From: an uncultured Methanosarcinales archaeon
Lineage (GTDB): Archaea > Halobacteriota > Methanosarcinia > Methanotrichales > Methanotrichaceae
DNA: 64,000 nt
Assembly: GCA_963843555.1 (NCBI GenBank)
Contig: CAWJKV010000005.1
Location: 96,001-160,000, forward strand
Reading direction: 5' to 3'
This document shows, piece after piece, positions 14,363-46,562 of this stretch. Within the stretch, counting starts at the first letter, position 1. Each line of letters opens with the position of its first letter. The notes under the pieces are model-generated. The model was not told where the DNA came from. It made no database searches and saw only the letters and a program-made list of their open reading frames with translations. The position numbers and the translations under genes were made by a program.

Positions 14363-16255
14363 GTGGATGCCTACTCGTTCTTCCTGGTGTTCCTCGCAAT
14401 CTACATAGCCGTCTTGCTCGCCATCGGCCTCTACTTATCTCGTCGACAAAAGTCTGTGACGGACTTCTGGCTGGCAGGAAGAGAGCTCGGGCCGATCAGC
14501 ATCGGATTTTCTGCGGCATCCGCGTGGATAACGGCGAGTGCACTGCTCCTGGCCACAGGGCTGTTTCTTCTCATCGGCATAGGTTCGATATGGATCTGGG
14601 TCTTCCCCAACATTGCCGGGCTGATCATAATAGCCGCGATCTCAGGAAGGATCAAGAACATTCCTGCTCTGACCCAGCCTGAGCTCATGGAGATAAGATA
14701 CGACCCCATGATCCGGGCGCCGGTGGCCGTGGCCGTCACCATCATGATGATACTCTTCTCGGTGACTGATTTCATCGGTTTCAAGCTGGTCCTGGGGACC
14801 TTCTTCGGCATCGAGCCCTTCTTCGCCATCGCCATTATGGCCGTATCAGTCGCCCTTTACGTCAGTGTGGGCGGCTTTCGCGCCGTGGTCTGGACCGATA
14901 TTTTGCAGTATATTCTGTTGGCAGGCCTGGCGGTGTATGTGGCCACACTGGTTCTGGACCTATCTGCCAAGAAGGGTGTCTCTTTGATCGAGGCCTCTTC
15001 AATGCTTGGCACAGACTGGTGGGATCTCTTCGTCCTGGGAGGCTTGATGGGGGCTCTGGTCTTCATGGTGGCCCTCTTGCCGGGATGGGTTGCAGAGCAG
15101 GATCCCTGGCAGAAGGTCTGGGCGGCGCGCGACGAACGCTCCGCGAAGAGAGGGCTCTTGCTTGGTGCTGCACTGCTGGCTTTGGTCTATCTTTGCTGCC
15201 TGCTCACAGCCATCGGCCTTTCTGTGCTCTATCCCCGGCCTGCAGGAGAGGTAGAGGCGGAGATGCTCTACCTCAGAGTCATCAGCGATAACGTATCGGG
15301 ATGGCTCCTGGGCCTGCTGACCATAGGCTTTGCCGCAGCCTCGATGTCCTGCACGGACACCTTTGCCACGTCTGGAGCCTCCTGTATCTCCCGGGATCTG
15401 ATCCAGCGGCACCTCTGGCCCACAGCCACCATGAAAGAGATGCTGATTGTCAACAGGATACTGGTGATAATCATGATCGGCATCTCGGCGTTAATCGCGT
15501 TGAATGTGAACAGCATCATGGATGCGGTAATCATCGCCACGGTCATAGGCACCACATCCTACTTCTTCCCCATTATCGGCGGGCTCTACTGGAAACGAGC
15601 CACCAAGTGGGGGGCCATGGCAGCGCTCATAGTCGGCGGCGGAACGCAGATCCTGCTCGTCTCCTATGAGCAATTCTGGCTGAAACAGCCTCTGGACAGC
15701 ATCTCGCCTCTGCTCACGGAGCACGGAGTGCTTGTCGGCCTGACATTGAGCGCTCTATTCTTCGTCGGCGTCTCGCTGGTCACGCGACCGACAGAGGATA
15801 TTCGCCTCGCGCCGTTCTTTCCTGAGGTCGCAGAGAAGGTCTTTGACAGCGGCCTTCCAGGAGTGGACAAGAAGGGCGCGCGCTACCATGAGGTCATCAT
15901 GCAGATCGAGGAGAAGATGGCAGGAGACCGCACTCACCTCAACCTCGCTATCGCGCACGCGAACGTCGACGGCGCTGCCGGGGCAGAGGAGCTGAAATGG
16001 GAGCCGTTCGTGGAGAAGCTGAAGGACATGCATTCCTCCTGGTTCACGCCCACGGGGAGCCACATCGTCTACCGGCTCTCTCAGGCGGATATGCTGGCCT
16101 GCGTCAAGATGGTGCGCGGCGATTCCAGCCAGATCTGGCTCTCAGCCGAGCCGACGCGCGAACAGAACGAAAGACAAAAGGATGAGCTCTATTTGGCATA
16201 TGAGGAGATAGGGGATGCACTGCGGGAGTTCGGCATGACCATCCTCGATCCAGAC
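14363..16255 (+). CDS. Sodium:solute symporter family protein with soluble C-terminal extension
   Basis: Many TM helices, DFWLAGR, GGFRAVVWTD; GTG start after GAGGTGG. True stop uncertain because it reads in frame into the next gene. Confidence 0.85.
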
Positions 16256-19140: not shown

Positions 19141-19213
19141 AGTCCCGTGGGGTAGCGGTCAATCCTGAGGGCCTTTGGAGCCCGCGACGGCGGTTCGAAT
19201 CCGCCCGGGACTA
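19141..19213 (+). tRNA. tRNA-Gln(TTG)
   Basis: AGTCCCG/CGGGACT acceptor stem, anticodon loop CTTTGGA, GGTTCGAATCC T-arm. Confidence 0.93.
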
Positions 19214-19307
19214 CTTTCAACTCAAGCGCATCAGAAACGTAGATATATCTGGCCGAGTATCATGAGGAGAGGGCCAGGCGGTTTGATTTATGATGCTAGA
19301 GTCAATT

Positions 19308-19382
19308 GCTCCGGTAGTGTAGCCCGGCCAATCATTTCGGCCTTTCAAGCCGAAGACTCGGGTTCAAATCCCGGCCGGAGCA
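19308..19382 (+). tRNA. tRNA-Glu(TTC)
   Basis: GCTCCGG/CCGGAGC acceptor stem, TCGGC-CTTTCAA-GCCGA anticodon arm. Confidence 0.93.
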
Positions 19383-19733
19383 TTTTTACCACAATTTTTC
19401 TTGATTATTATATCGCGGGATCGCCGACCCCATGATGGTCAGCCACTCTTGGGCATCGATTTGTGGCAAATTCACTTGGTTTGCGGCAAGTAATCTTGAT
19501 TTGCTGCCCAGGAGTATTTGCCCAGGAGTATTGAATGCCGAATATCCCGCTGCGAATTATCCACCCAGTATTCGGATACAGGACCTTTTTGGCGCGCATT
19601 ATCAAGGACTAATGCGGAGTGAAGAAGACGGCATCTTGGCAGCACCGCCCAGTAACAAAGACCCTTAGTTTCTACAACTTTGGATAGAAAAAGGACCTAC
19701 AAATATCGATTTTTAAAATAAATACCCGACACG

Positions 19734-19967
19734 TTTATATTCCATAAGCCGTTAAGAGGTGCTTGTGCCTGAGCAAAATACTCAAATATAAGCCGAGAAG
19801 CATGAGGATCAGGTACTCCACACCGCCAGCGGCATTTCAACTGCCTCTGCTTGGACCTAATGCCAAGCGAGGGTAATAACCCGTTGTCGGATGGTGCCAA
19901 TGGATTTGGGCCTCTGCGGACGGCTTAGATCTATGCATTGATGGTAAACTAAGGAGGTGGGAAAGAA
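19734..19967 (+). promoter_or_regulatory. TATA box plus ~200-nt structured 5' leader and RBS
   Basis: TTTATAT at 19734, TTGTGCCTGA near the inferred TSS, TAAGCCG/CGGCTTA closing stem, internal hairpins, AGGAGGTGG RBS. Confidence 0.6.
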
Positions 19968-20696
19968 ATGAGGAAACTAATAGCTGTTTTGGTTATTATC
20001 GCCATGGCCGTAGTAGGCATGGCCGGTGCAGCCAACTATATGTACGAAAAGGCATCGGTCAAGGGCGTTGGATACAAGAACGTAGAGATGATCGTTTCAA
20101 CCCAGACTGGTTTTGCAGGCCAGAAGCTGGTAGAGAAAGAGTCCGGATCCGGTAACGTAATCACCGAGAGGACTGAGCTCGAAGCCGAGAGGCAGCTTGG
20201 CAAGAATGGTCTCGTCCTAGCCGATTGCCTGTACCCAACCGGTGGCTGCGCCATGGACTACATCAACTTCACCAAGGAAGCTGAGTTCGAGTACATGCCC
20301 GTATCTTACCAGACCGGAACCTACGACCAGAAGTGGGTCGAGAAACTCTGCGTCCAGAACTACAGGATCGGCGCTGTGCTGACTGAGATGTACACCCATG
20401 CTGAGCACCTGCAGAAGACCACTGAGGTCAAGACCAGGGGCTACGCCAACAACTGCGTAACAAACTGCTGCACAGGTGTACTCGAGGCTAACCTCAACAG
20501 CAATGTAATCGGCGTTGCTCACATCGGATGGATCTCCAGGGATCCCATGGCTGACAACCAGCTCAAGGGTCGCCATGCCGAGTACGGCAGATCCGTCGAG
20601 GACCTGACTGGTGTCTTCTCCATCGAGAAGTTCATCCAGCTCTGGGGCAACTCCACATGCGGCGCAATCAGCGTTGACTGGCTGCCCTGCGTGTAA
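19968..20696 (+). CDS. Secreted Cys-rich beta-strand protein, paralog 1 (candidate sheath/filament subunit)
   Basis: Sec signal peptide, strong RBS, C-biased third codon positions, near-identical paralogs nearby. Confidence 0.85.
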   Translation: MRKLIAVLVIIAMAVVGMAGAANYMYEKASVKGVGYKNVEMIVSTQTGFAGQKLVEKESGSGNVITERTELEAERQLGKNGLVLADCLYPTGGCAMDYINFTKEAEFEYMPVSYQTGTYDQKWVEKLCVQNYRIGAVLTEMYTHAEHLQKTTEVKTRGYANNCVTNCCTGVLEANLNSNVIGVAHIGWISRDPMADNQLKGRHAEYGRSVEDLTGVFSIEKFIQLWGNSTCGAISVDWLPCV

Positions 20697-20724
20697 ATAG
20701 ATAAAACTGAATCGTCAGATTTGG

Positions 20725-20775
20725 CTCCGGGCTTGATTGCCCGGAGTTCATATTATATTTCGCGTTTTTATTGAA
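20725..20775 (+). terminator. Hairpin terminator
   Basis: CTCCGGGC-N6-GCCCGGAG followed by T-rich sequence; duplicated at 22021. Confidence 0.65.
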
Positions 20776-20975
20776 GTAGTAACCTTGCATCGAACGTTCT
20801 TTTTGCGAAAATATCGTCACCCAGATGGGGCGCCGATATATTAAGTGCATTATTCTGGATAACATGTCCCTAGAACCATGCGACCTCAGGTGAGTTTCGC
20901 CCTGCCCGGAGGTGAAAACAGGCATGTCGTGCGTGAATATTAGATGATCAAATTACAGAATTCATGCTCGATAGG

Positions 20976-21257
20976 TTTATATGTCAGTAATCTAATGTGG
21001 AAGGTTGTGCCTGAAGAACATTTTCAAATGCCCGATGAAAATCATGGGACCAGGCGCCTCACGCCGGATAGGATAGCACTTGACGCTTTCGGCAGATGTA
21101 TCAAAACTGAGCCGAACCAAGCGGTTTCACTCTTCTGGTGGAACGATCCCGGATCTTTGATCTGGGGCATATCTGATCCAATCGGGGTGATGTACTGAAG
21201 GATCATTCGTTGCTGTCAAGCAGCATTCGATCCTCATGTAAAGGAGGTGGGAAAGAA
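20976..21257 (+). promoter_or_regulatory. TATA box plus ~250-nt structured 5' leader and RBS
   Basis: TTTATAT at 20976, TTGTGCCTGA at the same spacing as in leader 1, CCCGAT/ATCGGG closing stem, multiple hairpins. Confidence 0.6.
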
Positions 21258-21992
21258 ATGAGAAAACTAATAGCTGTTTTGGTTATTATCGCCATGGCCG
21301 TAGTAGGCATGGCCGGTGCAGCCAACTATATGTACGAAAAGGCATCGGTCAAGGGCGTTGGATACAAGAACGTAGAGATGATCATTTCCACACAGACTGG
21401 CTTTGCCGGCCAGAAGCTGGTAGAGAAAGAGTCCGGATCCGGTAACGTGATCACCGAGAGGACTGAGATCGAAGCCGAGAGGCAGCTCGGCAGAGACGGC
21501 CTCGTTCTTGCTGGCAATTGCATTTACCCAACCGGCAATGCTTGCGCCATGGACTACATCAACTTCACTAAGGAAGCTGAGTTCGAGTACATGCCCGTAT
21601 CTTACCAGACCGGAACCTACGACCAGAAGTGGGTCGAGAAACTCTGCGTCCAGAACTACAGGATCGGCGCTGTGCTGACTGAAATGTACACCCATGCTGA
21701 GCACCTGCAGAAGACCACTGAGGTCAAGACCAGGGGCTACGCCAATAACTGTGTAACAAACTGCTGCACAGGTGTACTCGAGGCTAACCTCAACAGCAAC
21801 GTAATCGGCGTTGCCCACATCGGATGGATCTCCAGGGACCCCATGGCTGACCCACAGCTCAAGGGCCGCCATGCCGAGTATGGCAGATCTGTCGAGGACC
21901 TGACTGGCGTCTTCTCCATCGAGAAGTTCATCCAGCTCTGGGGCAACTCCACATGCGGCGCAATCAGCGTTGACTGGCTGCCCTGCGTGTAA
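21258..21992 (+). CDS. Secreted Cys-rich beta-strand protein, paralog 2
   Basis: Near-identical to 19968..20696 except for one loop and scattered substitutions. Confidence 0.85.
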   Translation: MRKLIAVLVIIAMAVVGMAGAANYMYEKASVKGVGYKNVEMIISTQTGFAGQKLVEKESGSGNVITERTEIEAERQLGRDGLVLAGNCIYPTGNACAMDYINFTKEAEFEYMPVSYQTGTYDQKWVEKLCVQNYRIGAVLTEMYTHAEHLQKTTEVKTRGYANNCVTNCCTGVLEANLNSNVIGVAHIGWISRDPMADPQLKGRHAEYGRSVEDLTGVFSIEKFIQLWGNSTCGAISVDWLPCV

Positions 21993-22020: not shown

Positions 22021-22062
22021 CTCCGGGCTCGATTGCCCGGAGTTCATATTATATTTTTGACT
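22021..22062 (+). terminator. Hairpin terminator
   Basis: CTCCGGGC-N6-GCCCGGAG followed by a T-tract. Confidence 0.65.
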
Positions 22063-24401: not shown

Positions 24402-24613
24402 ATTACGCACTATTCTTTCTATTTGAAAGTAAATCCACAATATAAATGGCAGCCAAAACCTTGAAATAGACTCCAGAGAACTAGATAACGGGTGTTAGGG
24501 TTCATCAGGAGAGTAATGGCCGTACATAAAGGTTACCGGCCCTGATTATTGTCAGAGGCCAAAGCGACCCCATAAATTTCCGGGGGCATCCGGCCAAAAG
24601 GAGGTAGTGTGGA

Positions 24614-25324
24614 TTGAAGAGAAAATTGATCGTTCTTGCGATTATCGCCATAGCTCTGGTGGGCATGGCGGGGGCTGCCAATTACATGTACGAGAAATCG
24701 TCTGTAAAAGGAGTAGGTTATCGGAGCCTGGAGATGGTTATCTCCACACAAAACGGCTTCAATGGACAGAAGCTGGTGGAGAAGCAGTCCGGTTCGGGAA
24801 ATGTAATTACTTCCAGGATAGAACTGGAAGCTGAGAGGCAGCCAACGAATCTGGATTGTCCCTGGCCGACCGGCAGCACTCCCATGGACTACATAAACTT
24901 CACCTCGGAACAGGAGCTGGAGTATATGCCCGTCTCATATCAGACCGGCACCTATGATCAGAAATGGGTGGACAAGCTCTGTGTGCAGAACTACAAGATC
25001 GGCGCCGTTCTGACTGAGATGTACACTCATGCTGAGCACCTGCAGAAGACCACCGAGGTCAAGACGAGAGGATACAATGGTCCCGTGACGAACTGCTGCA
25101 CAGGTGTTCTCGAGGCTAACCTCAACAGCAACGTAATCGGCGTGGCCCACATTGGATGGATCTCCCGGGACCCCACCGGCGACCCACAGCTGAAAGGCCG
25201 CCATGCTGAATATGGCCGCAGTGTCGAAGACCTCACCGGTGTCTTCTCCATTGAGAAGTTCATCCAGCTCTGGGGCAACTCCACCTGTGGAGCCGTCAGC
25301 GTTGATTGGCTGCCCTGTGTGTAA
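24614..25324 (+). CDS. Secreted Cys-rich beta-strand protein, paralog 3 (TTG start)
   Basis: Highly similar to paralogs 1 and 2; GGAGGT RBS; ends DWLPCV. Confidence 0.85.
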   Translation: MKRKLIVLAIIAIALVGMAGAANYMYEKSSVKGVGYRSLEMVISTQNGFNGQKLVEKQSGSGNVITSRIELEAERQPTNLDCPWPTGSTPMDYINFTSEQELEYMPVSYQTGTYDQKWVDKLCVQNYKIGAVLTEMYTHAEHLQKTTEVKTRGYNGPVTNCCTGVLEANLNSNVIGVAHIGWISRDPTGDPQLKGRHAEYGRSVEDLTGVFSIEKFIQLWGNSTCGAVSVDWLPCV

Positions 25325-44582: not shown

Positions 44583-44748
44583 CTTATCACTCTGTGTTCA
44601 TCTGTGACGCTTTCCTTTTGCGATATCCATAATGGTGTTTCTGGCGAACTAATATATGGACTTTTCTCGACGTTTGTCGTGAATCGACTAAAGGGACAAT
44701 TCTATATGATTTTGACACAAGAGAAGACAATCTCTCCGGAATCCCGGG

Positions 44749-46562
44749 CTAACGGATCATGGTTCTTCCCAGAGTTACCAGGAAAAGGGCCAGGAGCAGC
44801 CAGCCCAAGATAGACTCTATTGTAGCCATGTAGCGGCAGGCGCCTACAGGATACCATTTCACCTGCGTCCTGGCTGTGAAGACCATGGCGCTGAAGTAGA
44901 GGTTGTCCAGGAAGGTGAGATTCTCCTGTGCGCCAAGGCTGGCGCCGGAGCCGTTCAACGGCTCCACCACAATTCCTTCTCCCTGCCAGAAAAGGAAAGC
45001 GAAAAGAAGGATCAAAAAGCAGCTCAAAAATATGGTGTACCTGGGGCGAACGCCGTAGCCGCAGGAGATCCAGGCCAGGCCGTCCAGGAGCTTGGACCAG
45101 TTTATCTTTGCCTCTCTATCGGCCCGAACGATTAAGGACTTGCTGGACTGGCTCATGCGCCGATAATGGTAGTAGCAGTCGTCTGCGTCCTCAAACCATT
45201 CCAGATTCTTGAAATTCTTGGTCAGAGCGAGATATGCTGCGCCGTCGTAGATCAGGTGATCAGATAGATTCGGCCATCTGGCCTCCAGACGGATGAATTC
45301 GGCGTTATGCAGAGATATCTGTCCGGTGAAACTGGCATCGGAGAGGCGCATAACTTGAATTTTTGCACTTTCAAGATCCAGATCCTTTCGAAATTTTGCG
45401 CCTGTGAAGTATGCCGTCTTTGTAAACTGTGTTCCCTGGAAGGATGCCTCTTCCTGGAAGTCTGCGGAGTCAAAGTGAGCTTTTGCCTGGAACTCTGATG
45501 AGGAAAAGGATGCGTCCCTGCAAAACCGGACATGTCTGAAGTCCGAATCCATTGAAAAGACAGCATCCTGGAATTGGGCCGCTCCACCAAAGATTGCCTC
45601 CTCAAAGATCACGACCCCCTGGAACCTGGCACGGGAGAAGTTGACACTTCCCTCGAAATGAGATCCCATAAAGCTGGATTCGCCAAAGACGGCTTCTCTG
45701 AACTGAACATCACCTTTCAGGACGGCATCAATGAAGTTGACATTATTCAGTTGAACACGAAAGAAGTTGGCATTTCCTGATATGGATGATCCAAGAAATA
45801 TGACATTTCCCTGAAACCTGGCAAATTCCATATTAAGCTCTTCTCCGAAGCTTGCGCCCCGAAAATCGGCGTTTCCGGAAAGTACGGCGCTCTGAAAGCT
45901 GGCGTAACCCACGAATTTGGCTCCCTGGAAGTTGGCGTCATTGAGGAAGTCTGCCTTCCAGAAACTTGCCGCCCGGTCGAAAGTCGCCAGCCTGAAGTTG
46001 GCAGTTCCTGAGAACCTGGTCCCGGTGAAATCGGCATCTTCCCGGAAGCTCGCCTCACCGAAGTTGGTGCATAGCTCGCAAAAGCTGGCGGAGCCAAAGC
46101 TGGCCAGGCAATCGAAAACGGCATTGCCGAAGTTAGCGATAGCCGAAAAGGAGGCCCCCTGGAATCGGGCCTCGCGGGCAAATTTTGCATCTCTGAAAGT
46201 GGCATATCTCTTGAAGCCTGCGGCCTCGAATCTGGCTCCATTCTGGAAGGATGCTCCTTTGAAGCGCACCTCCTGGCCGAAGATCGAGCCGCAGAAGTCC
46301 AGAGGCTCCTGAAACCGGGCACTGGGCAAAGCTCACTTTGCCATGAAATTCGCAGTTCCTTATCTGGATCCGGGAGGAGACAACCGAGGCCGTCTGTGTC
46401 TGGCCGGGCGGGCGCTCGCAGTGAACGAGGGGCAGATCGAGTTCGGATATGTCGATGTCACCGACTATTGCCACATGATCAAAAATAACCGGATCACCAT
46501 TTTCGATCCGGTCCAGAATCTCGCGGGCTTCAATTACAGGAAGATGCGACTCTTCAGCTATT
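44749..46562 (-). CDS. Pentapeptide-repeat protein with C-terminal 2TM pore-like domain (frameshift near 46330; start approximate)
   Basis: A.F..A.F repeats, CGYGVRP, LYFSAMVFT, IESILGWLLLALFLVTL. Confidence 0.8.

Follow-up and report, generated by a model that had tools for sequence, protein, structure and literature searches.

A promoter-leader with a conserved fold and a likely translated upstream frame ahead of sheath-protein and pheS genes in Methanotrichaceae

In Escherichia coli the phenylalanyl-tRNA synthetase gene pheST is preceded by pheM, a short open reading frame (ORF) rich in Phe codons, and the long 5' untranslated region of ompA carries a 5'-terminal stem-loop that acts as a stabiliser of this abundant envelope-protein mRNA, with a free Shine-Dalgarno sequence (SD). 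The archaeal leaders described here have features of both. Those ahead of pheS share the layout of pheM, a Phe-codon upstream ORF (uORF) before pheS, but they are archaeal, start leaderless at a predicted GUG, have no conserved terminator/antiterminator pair that we could find and share their ancestry with leaders of sheath-protein genes; the sheath copies studied here, unlike pheM, lack a Phe cluster. With ompA the leaders have in common a hairpin at the predicted first nucleotide, a long leader, an abundant envelope-protein mRNA and a free SD, whereas their hairpin, P1, holds a start codon, and selection acts on the frame that follows it in one sheath type (type B) and in the pheS copies.

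A third relative is provided by the mycobacterial polycysteine leaderless sORF attenuators, in which, according to the accessible text of the report, a run of Cys codons is the sensor and release of the ribosome binding site (RBS) the output (10.1101/834739). As described there, they have a leaderless first ORF at a 5' AUG or GUG, structured RNA and control by ribosome position, to which the predicted leaderless start, the fold and the proposed ribosome control of our leaders would correspond, but the sheath copies have no sensing codons and RBS release is unsupported at pheS. The accessible parts of two further papers indicate that archaea have leaderless GUG mRNAs, leaderless transcripts being only about 15% in Methanosarcina (PMC7531240), and that a leaderless sORF is seen in M. 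mazei (PMC11456600).

The downstream genes belong to the sheath (SH) protein group of Methanotrichales, whose genes duplicate frequently and of which Mthe_0668 is the most transcribed SH gene of Methanothrix, as far as the accessible parts of the description go (PMC11576556; expression context in the accessible part of PMC10470525). The genes studied here are likewise tandemly duplicated near tRNA genes. The words UTR, leader, untranslated, promoter, non-coding and upstream are all absent from the main text of PMC11576556, and the literature searched, which took in few subscription papers, contains no description of this leader or of such attenuation in these archaea.

We hypothesise that these leaders are folded RNAs found family-wide, that the type-B frame is likely translated and acts by ribosome passage and not through its peptide, and that the pheS copy is a Phe attenuator; we judge this reading to be evenly balanced between right and wrong.

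The sheath-gene leaders and their promoters

The window is the whole stretch of DNA analysed, 64,000 nt from an uncultured Methanosarcinales archaeon (Methanotrichaceae; GCA_963843555.1, contig CAWJKV010000005.1, positions 96,001-160,000 of the forward strand), and G, C and L numbers are our handles for genomes, contigs and loci. Its two main SH genes each lie behind a long leader (Table 1). ABK14458.1, the homolog at locus L016, is identical to the gene 1 protein at 189 of 227 positions (83%) and is Mthe_0668, which the supplement of PMC11576556 names 'Sheath protein'; by protein sequence, both downstream genes are orthologs of Mthe_0668 within the SH group. The sheath protein was matched in 61 of 61 family genomes and has no match in Pfam, solved structures or the ESM Atlas, and two AlphaFold models, in which a core of two six-stranded beta-sheets was looked for, have a pLDDT of about 30. 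An identification of these genes as MspA was dropped, since they belong to the SH family.

Table 1. Features of the two sheath-gene leaders, in window positions.
Feature	Position	Strand	Basis or remark
Promoter 1: BRE-like CCGACACG and TATA box TTTATATT	19726..19741	+	sequence
Leader 1 (type A), 203 nt	19765..19967	+	model match 64.8 bits; predicted start at +1
Short leaderless uORF, leader 1: GTG...TAA, VPEQNTQI, 8 codons	19765..19791	+	no coding signal in clade
P1, leader 1: GUGCCUGA (19765-72) with UCAGGUAC (19809-16)	19765..19816	+	MFE and centroid
P2 domain, leader 1: 19818-32 with 19881-94, encloses variable hairpins	19818..19894	+	homologous to leader-2 P2
P3, leader 1: GGAUUUGGGCC with GGCUUAGAUCU	19902..19932	+	266/275 cells paired (25 same-genus copies)
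SD GGAGGTG, gene 1	19953..19959	+	sequence; nearly invariant in leader alignment
Sheath (SH) protein gene 1	19968..20696	+	242 aa; signal-peptide-like N-terminus, Cys-rich
Hairpin and U-rich tract 3' of gene 1	20725..20770	+	sequence; likely terminator, putative function
Promoter 2: BRE-like TCGATAGG and TATA box TTTATATG	20968..20983	+	sequence
Leader 2 (type B), 251 nt	21007..21257	+	model match 69.4 bits; predicted start at +1; 44 homologous type-B leaders
P1, leader 2: GUGCCUG (21007-13) with CAGGCGC (21051-57)	21007..21057	+	303/308 cells paired
Leaderless uORF, leader 2: GTG...TGA, 63 codons ending PIGVMY	21007..21198	+	stop depletion, stop-codon exchange
P2 domain, leader 2: 21059-74 with 21176-90, closes multiloop of variable hairpins	21059..21190	+	covariation
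P3, leader 2: GGAUC/GAUCC and inner GCUG/CAGC stem	21200..21233	+	starts 2 nt past uORF stop
SD GGAGGTG, gene 2	21243..21249	+	sequence
Sheath (SH) protein gene 2	21258..21992	+	244 aa; 96% identical to gene 1

The hairpin and U-rich tract downstream of gene 1 recur after gene 2 (about 22021-22062). Directly 5' of the cluster lie tRNA-Gln(TTG) and tRNA-Glu(TTC) (19141-19214 and 19307-19383), near which nrpR-like and rpS6e genes are found on the opposite strand; in other genera tRNA genes are likewise upstream of the SH cluster. The window also has a third SH paralog (24614-25324, TTG start), whose conserved leader at 24450-24613 is of another kind, AAAACCTTGAAATAG ... GGGTGTTAGGG ... CAGGAGAG, and occurs in several genera (L019, L030, L035, L037, L063, L066, L067, L070), and a further conserved type in genus g8, with a CGACGAAAAAGTATAACTAC promoter and a length of about 130 nt, precedes ACG-start SH paralogs (L043, L051, L056, L059, L062). 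Behind a good SD, eleven SH paralogs have ACG at the start-codon position (L023, L024, L028, L043, L046, L047, L051, L056, L059, L062, L064) and two have ATA (L048, L052); these are likely non-canonical starts that turn minor sheath subunits down. Two SH paralogs elsewhere in the source genome (G000:C15 80074-80941 and C11 66937-67687) are piecewise matches with a frameshifted look in the assembly.

An earlier, sequence-only reading of the window had taken the two upstream regions as one undescribed RNA motif. The elements it listed all lie where it placed them, namely TTTATAT (19734 and 20976) with GTGCCTGA 31 nt later (19765 and 21007), TAAGCCG (19789) and CGGCTTA (19921), CCCGAT (21031) and ATCGGG (21181), the two strings of the core and the arms of the hairpins, and the leaders are, as it held, more diverged than the coding sequences (159 of 229 aligned bases identical, against 694 of 729).

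From an alignment of 46 leaders from nine genera we built a covariance model of its first 83 positions (about 80 nt), with P2 and P3 outside the search. In the window the model scores 65-69 bits at the two leaders, both of which are in its training set, and at most 10.1 bits anywhere else. Within the family it finds matches in 83 of 101 genomes, spread over 15 of 16 genera; in the source genome three matches have E <0.05, leaders 1 and 2 and one on contig C14, and across 146 genomes of other families there was one weak match (21 bits) among the 30 candidates scored per genome. Viral contigs gave 90 pattern matches, none of them matched by the model. The first 30 loci have 46 gene starts, 33 of them with a TATA-plus-GTGCC pattern (one false and one duplicate row included), and many SH paralogs lack it. 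The leaders, 200-280 nt long across the family, fall into type A (leader 1; n=48), type B (leader 2; n=44 including two unclassified copies added) and type C (n=10). They were gathered with a GTG-like pattern, so the invariance of the start codon is partly circular; copies with other triplets there are TCG (L053, L058) and ATA (L122). The C14 match is a third type-B leader (44610-44860, minus strand; L031/L073) before a further SH copy, and its uORF is frameshifted early (22 codons) with the net length still in frame.

The TATA-to-GTG spacing of promoter 1 is kept across the 46 homologous leaders, and promoter 2 is near-identical to the pheS promoter of relatives. In leaderless genes of the source genome the distance from a TATA box of this kind to the gene start is 30-33 nt, so a GTG at 31 would lie at or adjoin +1, as at the start codons of the mycobacterial type; RNA contigs cannot give the start itself. 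The predicted +1 near 19765 and 21007 thus fits the promoter spacing of the source genome, and the ends of RNA contigs fit weakly. Specifically, contigs of relatives from two studies have 5' ends at 19772-19781, a weak hint of leader transcription, and one from a third study begins at 19808, but two contigs of a fourth study run across the leader-1 promoter, which counts against a start at the GTG. Leaders of relatives are covered by RNA contigs and 19400-19702 is uncovered, a gap that divergence could explain, expression levels not being readable from contigs. Two of these contigs, from two studies, have a library adapter joined exactly at 19781 (window 19780-19781), within a conserved GAGCAAAAUACUC hairpin; this junction may mark a site of processing or be an artefact of cDNA ends.

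A family-wide fold

Scored against shuffles, the minimum free energies of leader 1 (z -2.5) and leader 2 (z -1.9) are moderately better than expected. The one helix that RNAalifold finds common to all types is P1 (GUGCCUG/CAGGYRC), which joins the first 7 bases to CAGGYRC and begins at the predicted +1 in every leader type; this best-supported helix was absent from the earlier drawing. P2 and P3 were added to the consensus by hand before cross-type scoring. Together the three helices have 85% of 815 cells paired across types, with 67 two-sided changes; none of 500 shuffles scored as high and slid controls gave 31-43%. Within type B alone 91% of cells are paired. As shuffles ignore relatedness and the structure was drawn from the same sequences, we also counted events on a tree of the 44 type-B leaders, where the background is 0.11 compensatory events per pair.

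On this tree P1 has 3 compensatory, 14 one-sided and 4 breaking events, the outer helix of P2 has 5, 29 and 19 (330/351 cells paired), P3 has 0, 6 and 3 (211/215) and inner P3 has 4, 7 and 12 (135/146), so that P1, P2 and inner P3 change in a compensatory manner above background. In leader 1 and its relatives, P1 is paired in 199 of 200 cells of 25 same-genus copies, is invariant there and covaries across types; P2 has 3 compensatory events in these 25 copies, though in an alignment that is shifted there no more than 66% of its cells pair, and P3 has 21 one-sided pair-keeping changes and 8 breaks. The comparison with Rfam that had been proposed returned no match to either leader up to E 10, and Rfam 15 finds only four tRNAs in the window at the gathering threshold. 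These comparisons support P1, P2 and P3 as a family-wide, covarying structured 5' leader with no Rfam family.

The particular pairings on which the sequence-only reading rested fared otherwise. A closing stem shared by both leaders was proposed, but only its 5' arms align (columns 32-38), the 3' arms lying in different helices (columns 301-309 against 232-237). Its leader-2 form, CCCGAT/ATCGGG, has 0 compensatory, 18 one-sided and 29 breaking events, and the compensatory GGU/ACC to GGC/GCC change claimed for the core has 0, 10 and 5; taken together, CCCGAT/ATCGGG and GGC/GCC are paired in 71% of cells, a value reached by 92 of 500 shuffles. The leader-1 form, TAAGCCG/CGGCTTA, fails as a shared structure (0 compensatory and 15 breaking events); as a candidate alternative pairing it keeps 6-7 of 7 pairs in 19 of 38 leader-1-type copies and 145 of 175 cells in 25 same-genus copies, where it competes with P3. 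Among the inner multiloop hairpins two of leader 2 hold up to the extent of 4 compensatory events each, but breaks are about as frequent as background. What stands of that reading is an undescribed, covarying cis-acting leader; the covariations it cited do not, and a pure RNA motif misses both the uORF at +1 and the pheS version. An HDV-like or pseudoknot ribozyme, to which the P1-loop pairing had pointed, and a hammerhead were set aside, with no Rfam match and 0 compensatory events for the pairing that would make the pseudoknot.

The upstream frame in sheath and pheS leaders

The uORF of leader 2 begins at the predicted +1, with its start codon sequestered in P1 by predicted pairing, a point against our reading, and its TGA (21196-98) lies 59 nt before the AUG, the same spacing as at pheS. 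Relative to homologs it has a -1 shift near 21129 that is offset by a +1 shift near 21175, restoring the frame, and RNA contigs of relatives have the unshifted form at both places; such a compensating pair occurs in two type-B copies, the window's and L094. Read with a typical copy as reference, the frame of the 44 type-B leaders has 7 stop cells at 6 positions in about 2320 cells, against 35 at 14 positions or 30 at 12 in neutral tree simulations with generic or column-specific bases (P 0.000-0.013, under a crude mutation model), whereas the other frames have stops as simulated. At codon 64 a stop is found in 34 of 44 copies (TGA 16, TAA 13, TAG 5), and never TGG, with three more stopping at codon 63. 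The frame is kept in 28 of 44 copies and open from end to end in 24, with lengths of 43-68 codons, while 20 are broken by a frameshift or stop. The peptide itself is near neutral (pN/pS 0.87; changes by codon position 355/337/365), the conserved residues of the sheath uORF coincide with helices, and neither Cys nor any other residue is enriched in the sheath uORFs. We consider it likely, from this pattern of substitutions, that the type-B frame is translated from its predicted +1 GUG.

In type A outside the source genus (23 copies) none of the 515 cells, which span 24 codons, is a stop (P 0.007-0.037). Leader 1 and 25 same-genus copies have no coding signal, the leader-1 frame stopping at codon 9, nor have the 8 type-C leaders tested. 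The window's leader 1 has likely lost a long uORF and kept a stabilising fold.

Twenty further model matches, mostly weaker, were fetched, of which 19 lie before another gene, pheS, and one before an SH gene. We then chose pheS regions by protein and not by motif, giving 50 upstream regions, of which 31, in five genera, carry the uORF leader: all 26 from the source genus, all 5 from four other genera and none of the 19 from ten further genera. The promoter and 5' domain of these leaders resemble type B most. From the +1 GTG they hold an ORF that ends in Phe codons doubling as a U-tract, with 2-4 Phe in the last 8 codons (genome-wide Phe 3.6%). The alignment of 32 copies has no stop in any of its 1118 codon cells, against 86 and 63 in the other frames; changes at the third position number 131, against 71 and 49, and pN/pS is 0.30, against 1.2 and 1.6 in the other frames. 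Lengths are 35, 36, 39, 40 and 41 codons, stops alternate between TGA and TAA, and the GTG is retained where bases 4-5 change and break P1. These substitution patterns mark the pheS uORF as clearly coding. The consensus fold of the pheS leaders has no mutually exclusive terminator/antiterminator or sequestrator structures, and the modelled SD accessibility of 32 leaders is unaffected by ribosome position (0.43-0.48).

It is likely that pheS acquired a copy of the promoter-leader in one subclade. The pheS-type loci are L104-L121, L123 and L164-L193; that of the source genome (G000:C13, about 15360-15570, minus strand; L173) has an intact uORF, and the pheS ORF there has an apparent break after about 300 codons in the assembly. 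In G016:C12, G008:C10, G022:C1, G035:C80, G044:C71 and G046:C16 no more than about 5-10 kb separates pheS from the SH cluster, a proximity that may have allowed the promoter-leader to be copied locally.

A conserved uORF thus precedes the gene in type B and the pheS copies, but not in leader 1, and a cluster of cognate codons is present in the pheS copies only. As the sheath uORFs of the window lack such a cluster, we do not class these copies as amino-acid attenuators.

Ribosome passage as a possible means of control

That the frame is kept open in type B, and that a Phe-ended copy stands before pheS, suggests that the leader likely lets ribosomes control the downstream gene. In our proposal transcription would start at the GUG and a ribosome would load before the 3' strand of P1 is made; it may then trail RNA polymerase over a stretch of about 190 nt, which has a U-rich segment and would be naked with no ribosome on it, and in this way keep aCPSF1/FttA off the nascent RNA and bring the transcript to the SD, and P1 would close behind this first ribosome, limiting re-loading and protecting the 5' end. 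Sheath mRNA output would track translational capacity and, at pheS, a ribosome held up by a shortage of Phe-tRNA would conceal the terminator, with more pheS expression as the outcome. A gene of the aCPSF1/FttA family is present in the source genome (TIGR03675, over the cut-off), and cleavage by aCPSF1 follows U-rich tracts, as reported in the accessible text of PMC7515710. Control at the level of transcription is preferred because the pheS Phe codons form the U-tract and because access to the pheS SD does not change with ribosome position. The complete version, a portable Methanotrichaceae promoter-leader whose uORF, by way of aCPSF1/FttA, ties sheath transcription to the supply of ribosomes and which was later recruited as a Phe-sensing attenuator at pheS, with the Phe codons as U-tract terminator, is tentative, and we think it more probably wrong than right.

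One possibility is that the leaders are purely structural, stabilisers of mRNA or enhancers of translation in which a 5'-end hairpin and two domains protect a very abundant mRNA and keep its SD free; the sheath frame would be vestigial or incidental, and a true uORF would exist in the pheS copy alone. The position of P1 at the predicted +1 in all types, the standing of the downstream gene as the most transcribed SH gene (in the accessible part of PMC11576556), the lack of coding signal in type C and in type A of the source genus and the 20 of 44 broken type-B copies are all in keeping with this, and for leader 1 plain stabilisation is at least as likely as our own reading. However, it leaves unexplained the stop depletion in a single frame, the three interchangeable stops at one place and the compensating indels of type B, and for the family as a whole we regard it as unlikely.

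It is a shade less likely, in our estimate, that the uORF is translated but tunes translation, such that a ribosome at its stop melts the 5' arm of P3, GAUCCU is freed to pair with the SD and the dwell time at the stop sets initiation on the sheath gene. Only 2 nt separate the uORF stop from P3, and in each of 20 type-B sequences RNAalifold joins UCC in the 3' arm of P3 to GGA close to the SD. In 23 intact type-B copies the modelled accessibility from SD to AUG is 0.59, and 0.43 once a footprint covers the stop, and the mycobacterial leaderless attenuators use RBS sequestration, by the accessible account (10.1101/834739). Nevertheless, UCCU/AGGA keeps its pairs on the tree no better than background (0.35 against 0.42), and the 32 pheS leaders show no modelled change in accessibility.

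A ligand- or protein-binding RNA, either riboswitch-like or an autoregulatory site with P1, P2 and P3 as scaffold, could account for the conservation of the first 24 nt of type A even at third positions (a GAG...CUC hairpin) and for the GAGGGUA that types A and C have in common ahead of the SD. We think it improbable, as near-invariant columns across types are confined to P1, one strand of P2 and the SD and start, loops and junctions vary freely, Rfam has no match, and neither the invariant unpaired bases of a ligand pocket and the expression platform of a riboswitch nor a conserved terminator or SD switch was found in the leaders. That the likeness merely reflects duplication or gene conversion of a strong promoter and the DNA downstream of it, with a non-functional fold and frame, would suit the promoter DNA common to sheath and pheS copies and the frequent duplication of SH genes given in the accessible part of PMC11576556, but is very improbable given compensatory changes above background, a leader in 15 of 16 genera and the coding signature at pheS.

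If control by ribosome passage is correct, the leaders would be a natural archaeal example of attenuation mediated by ribosomes, one whose evolutionary origin is visible. With the pheS copy, codon-sensing attenuation would have a sharp archaeal case that lends itself to testing, and the sheath copies point to a way in which a codon sensor can arise from a translated leader that does not sense. For Methanothrix, a major acetoclastic methanogen, the leaders would offer a first handle on the control of its most transcribed sheath gene.
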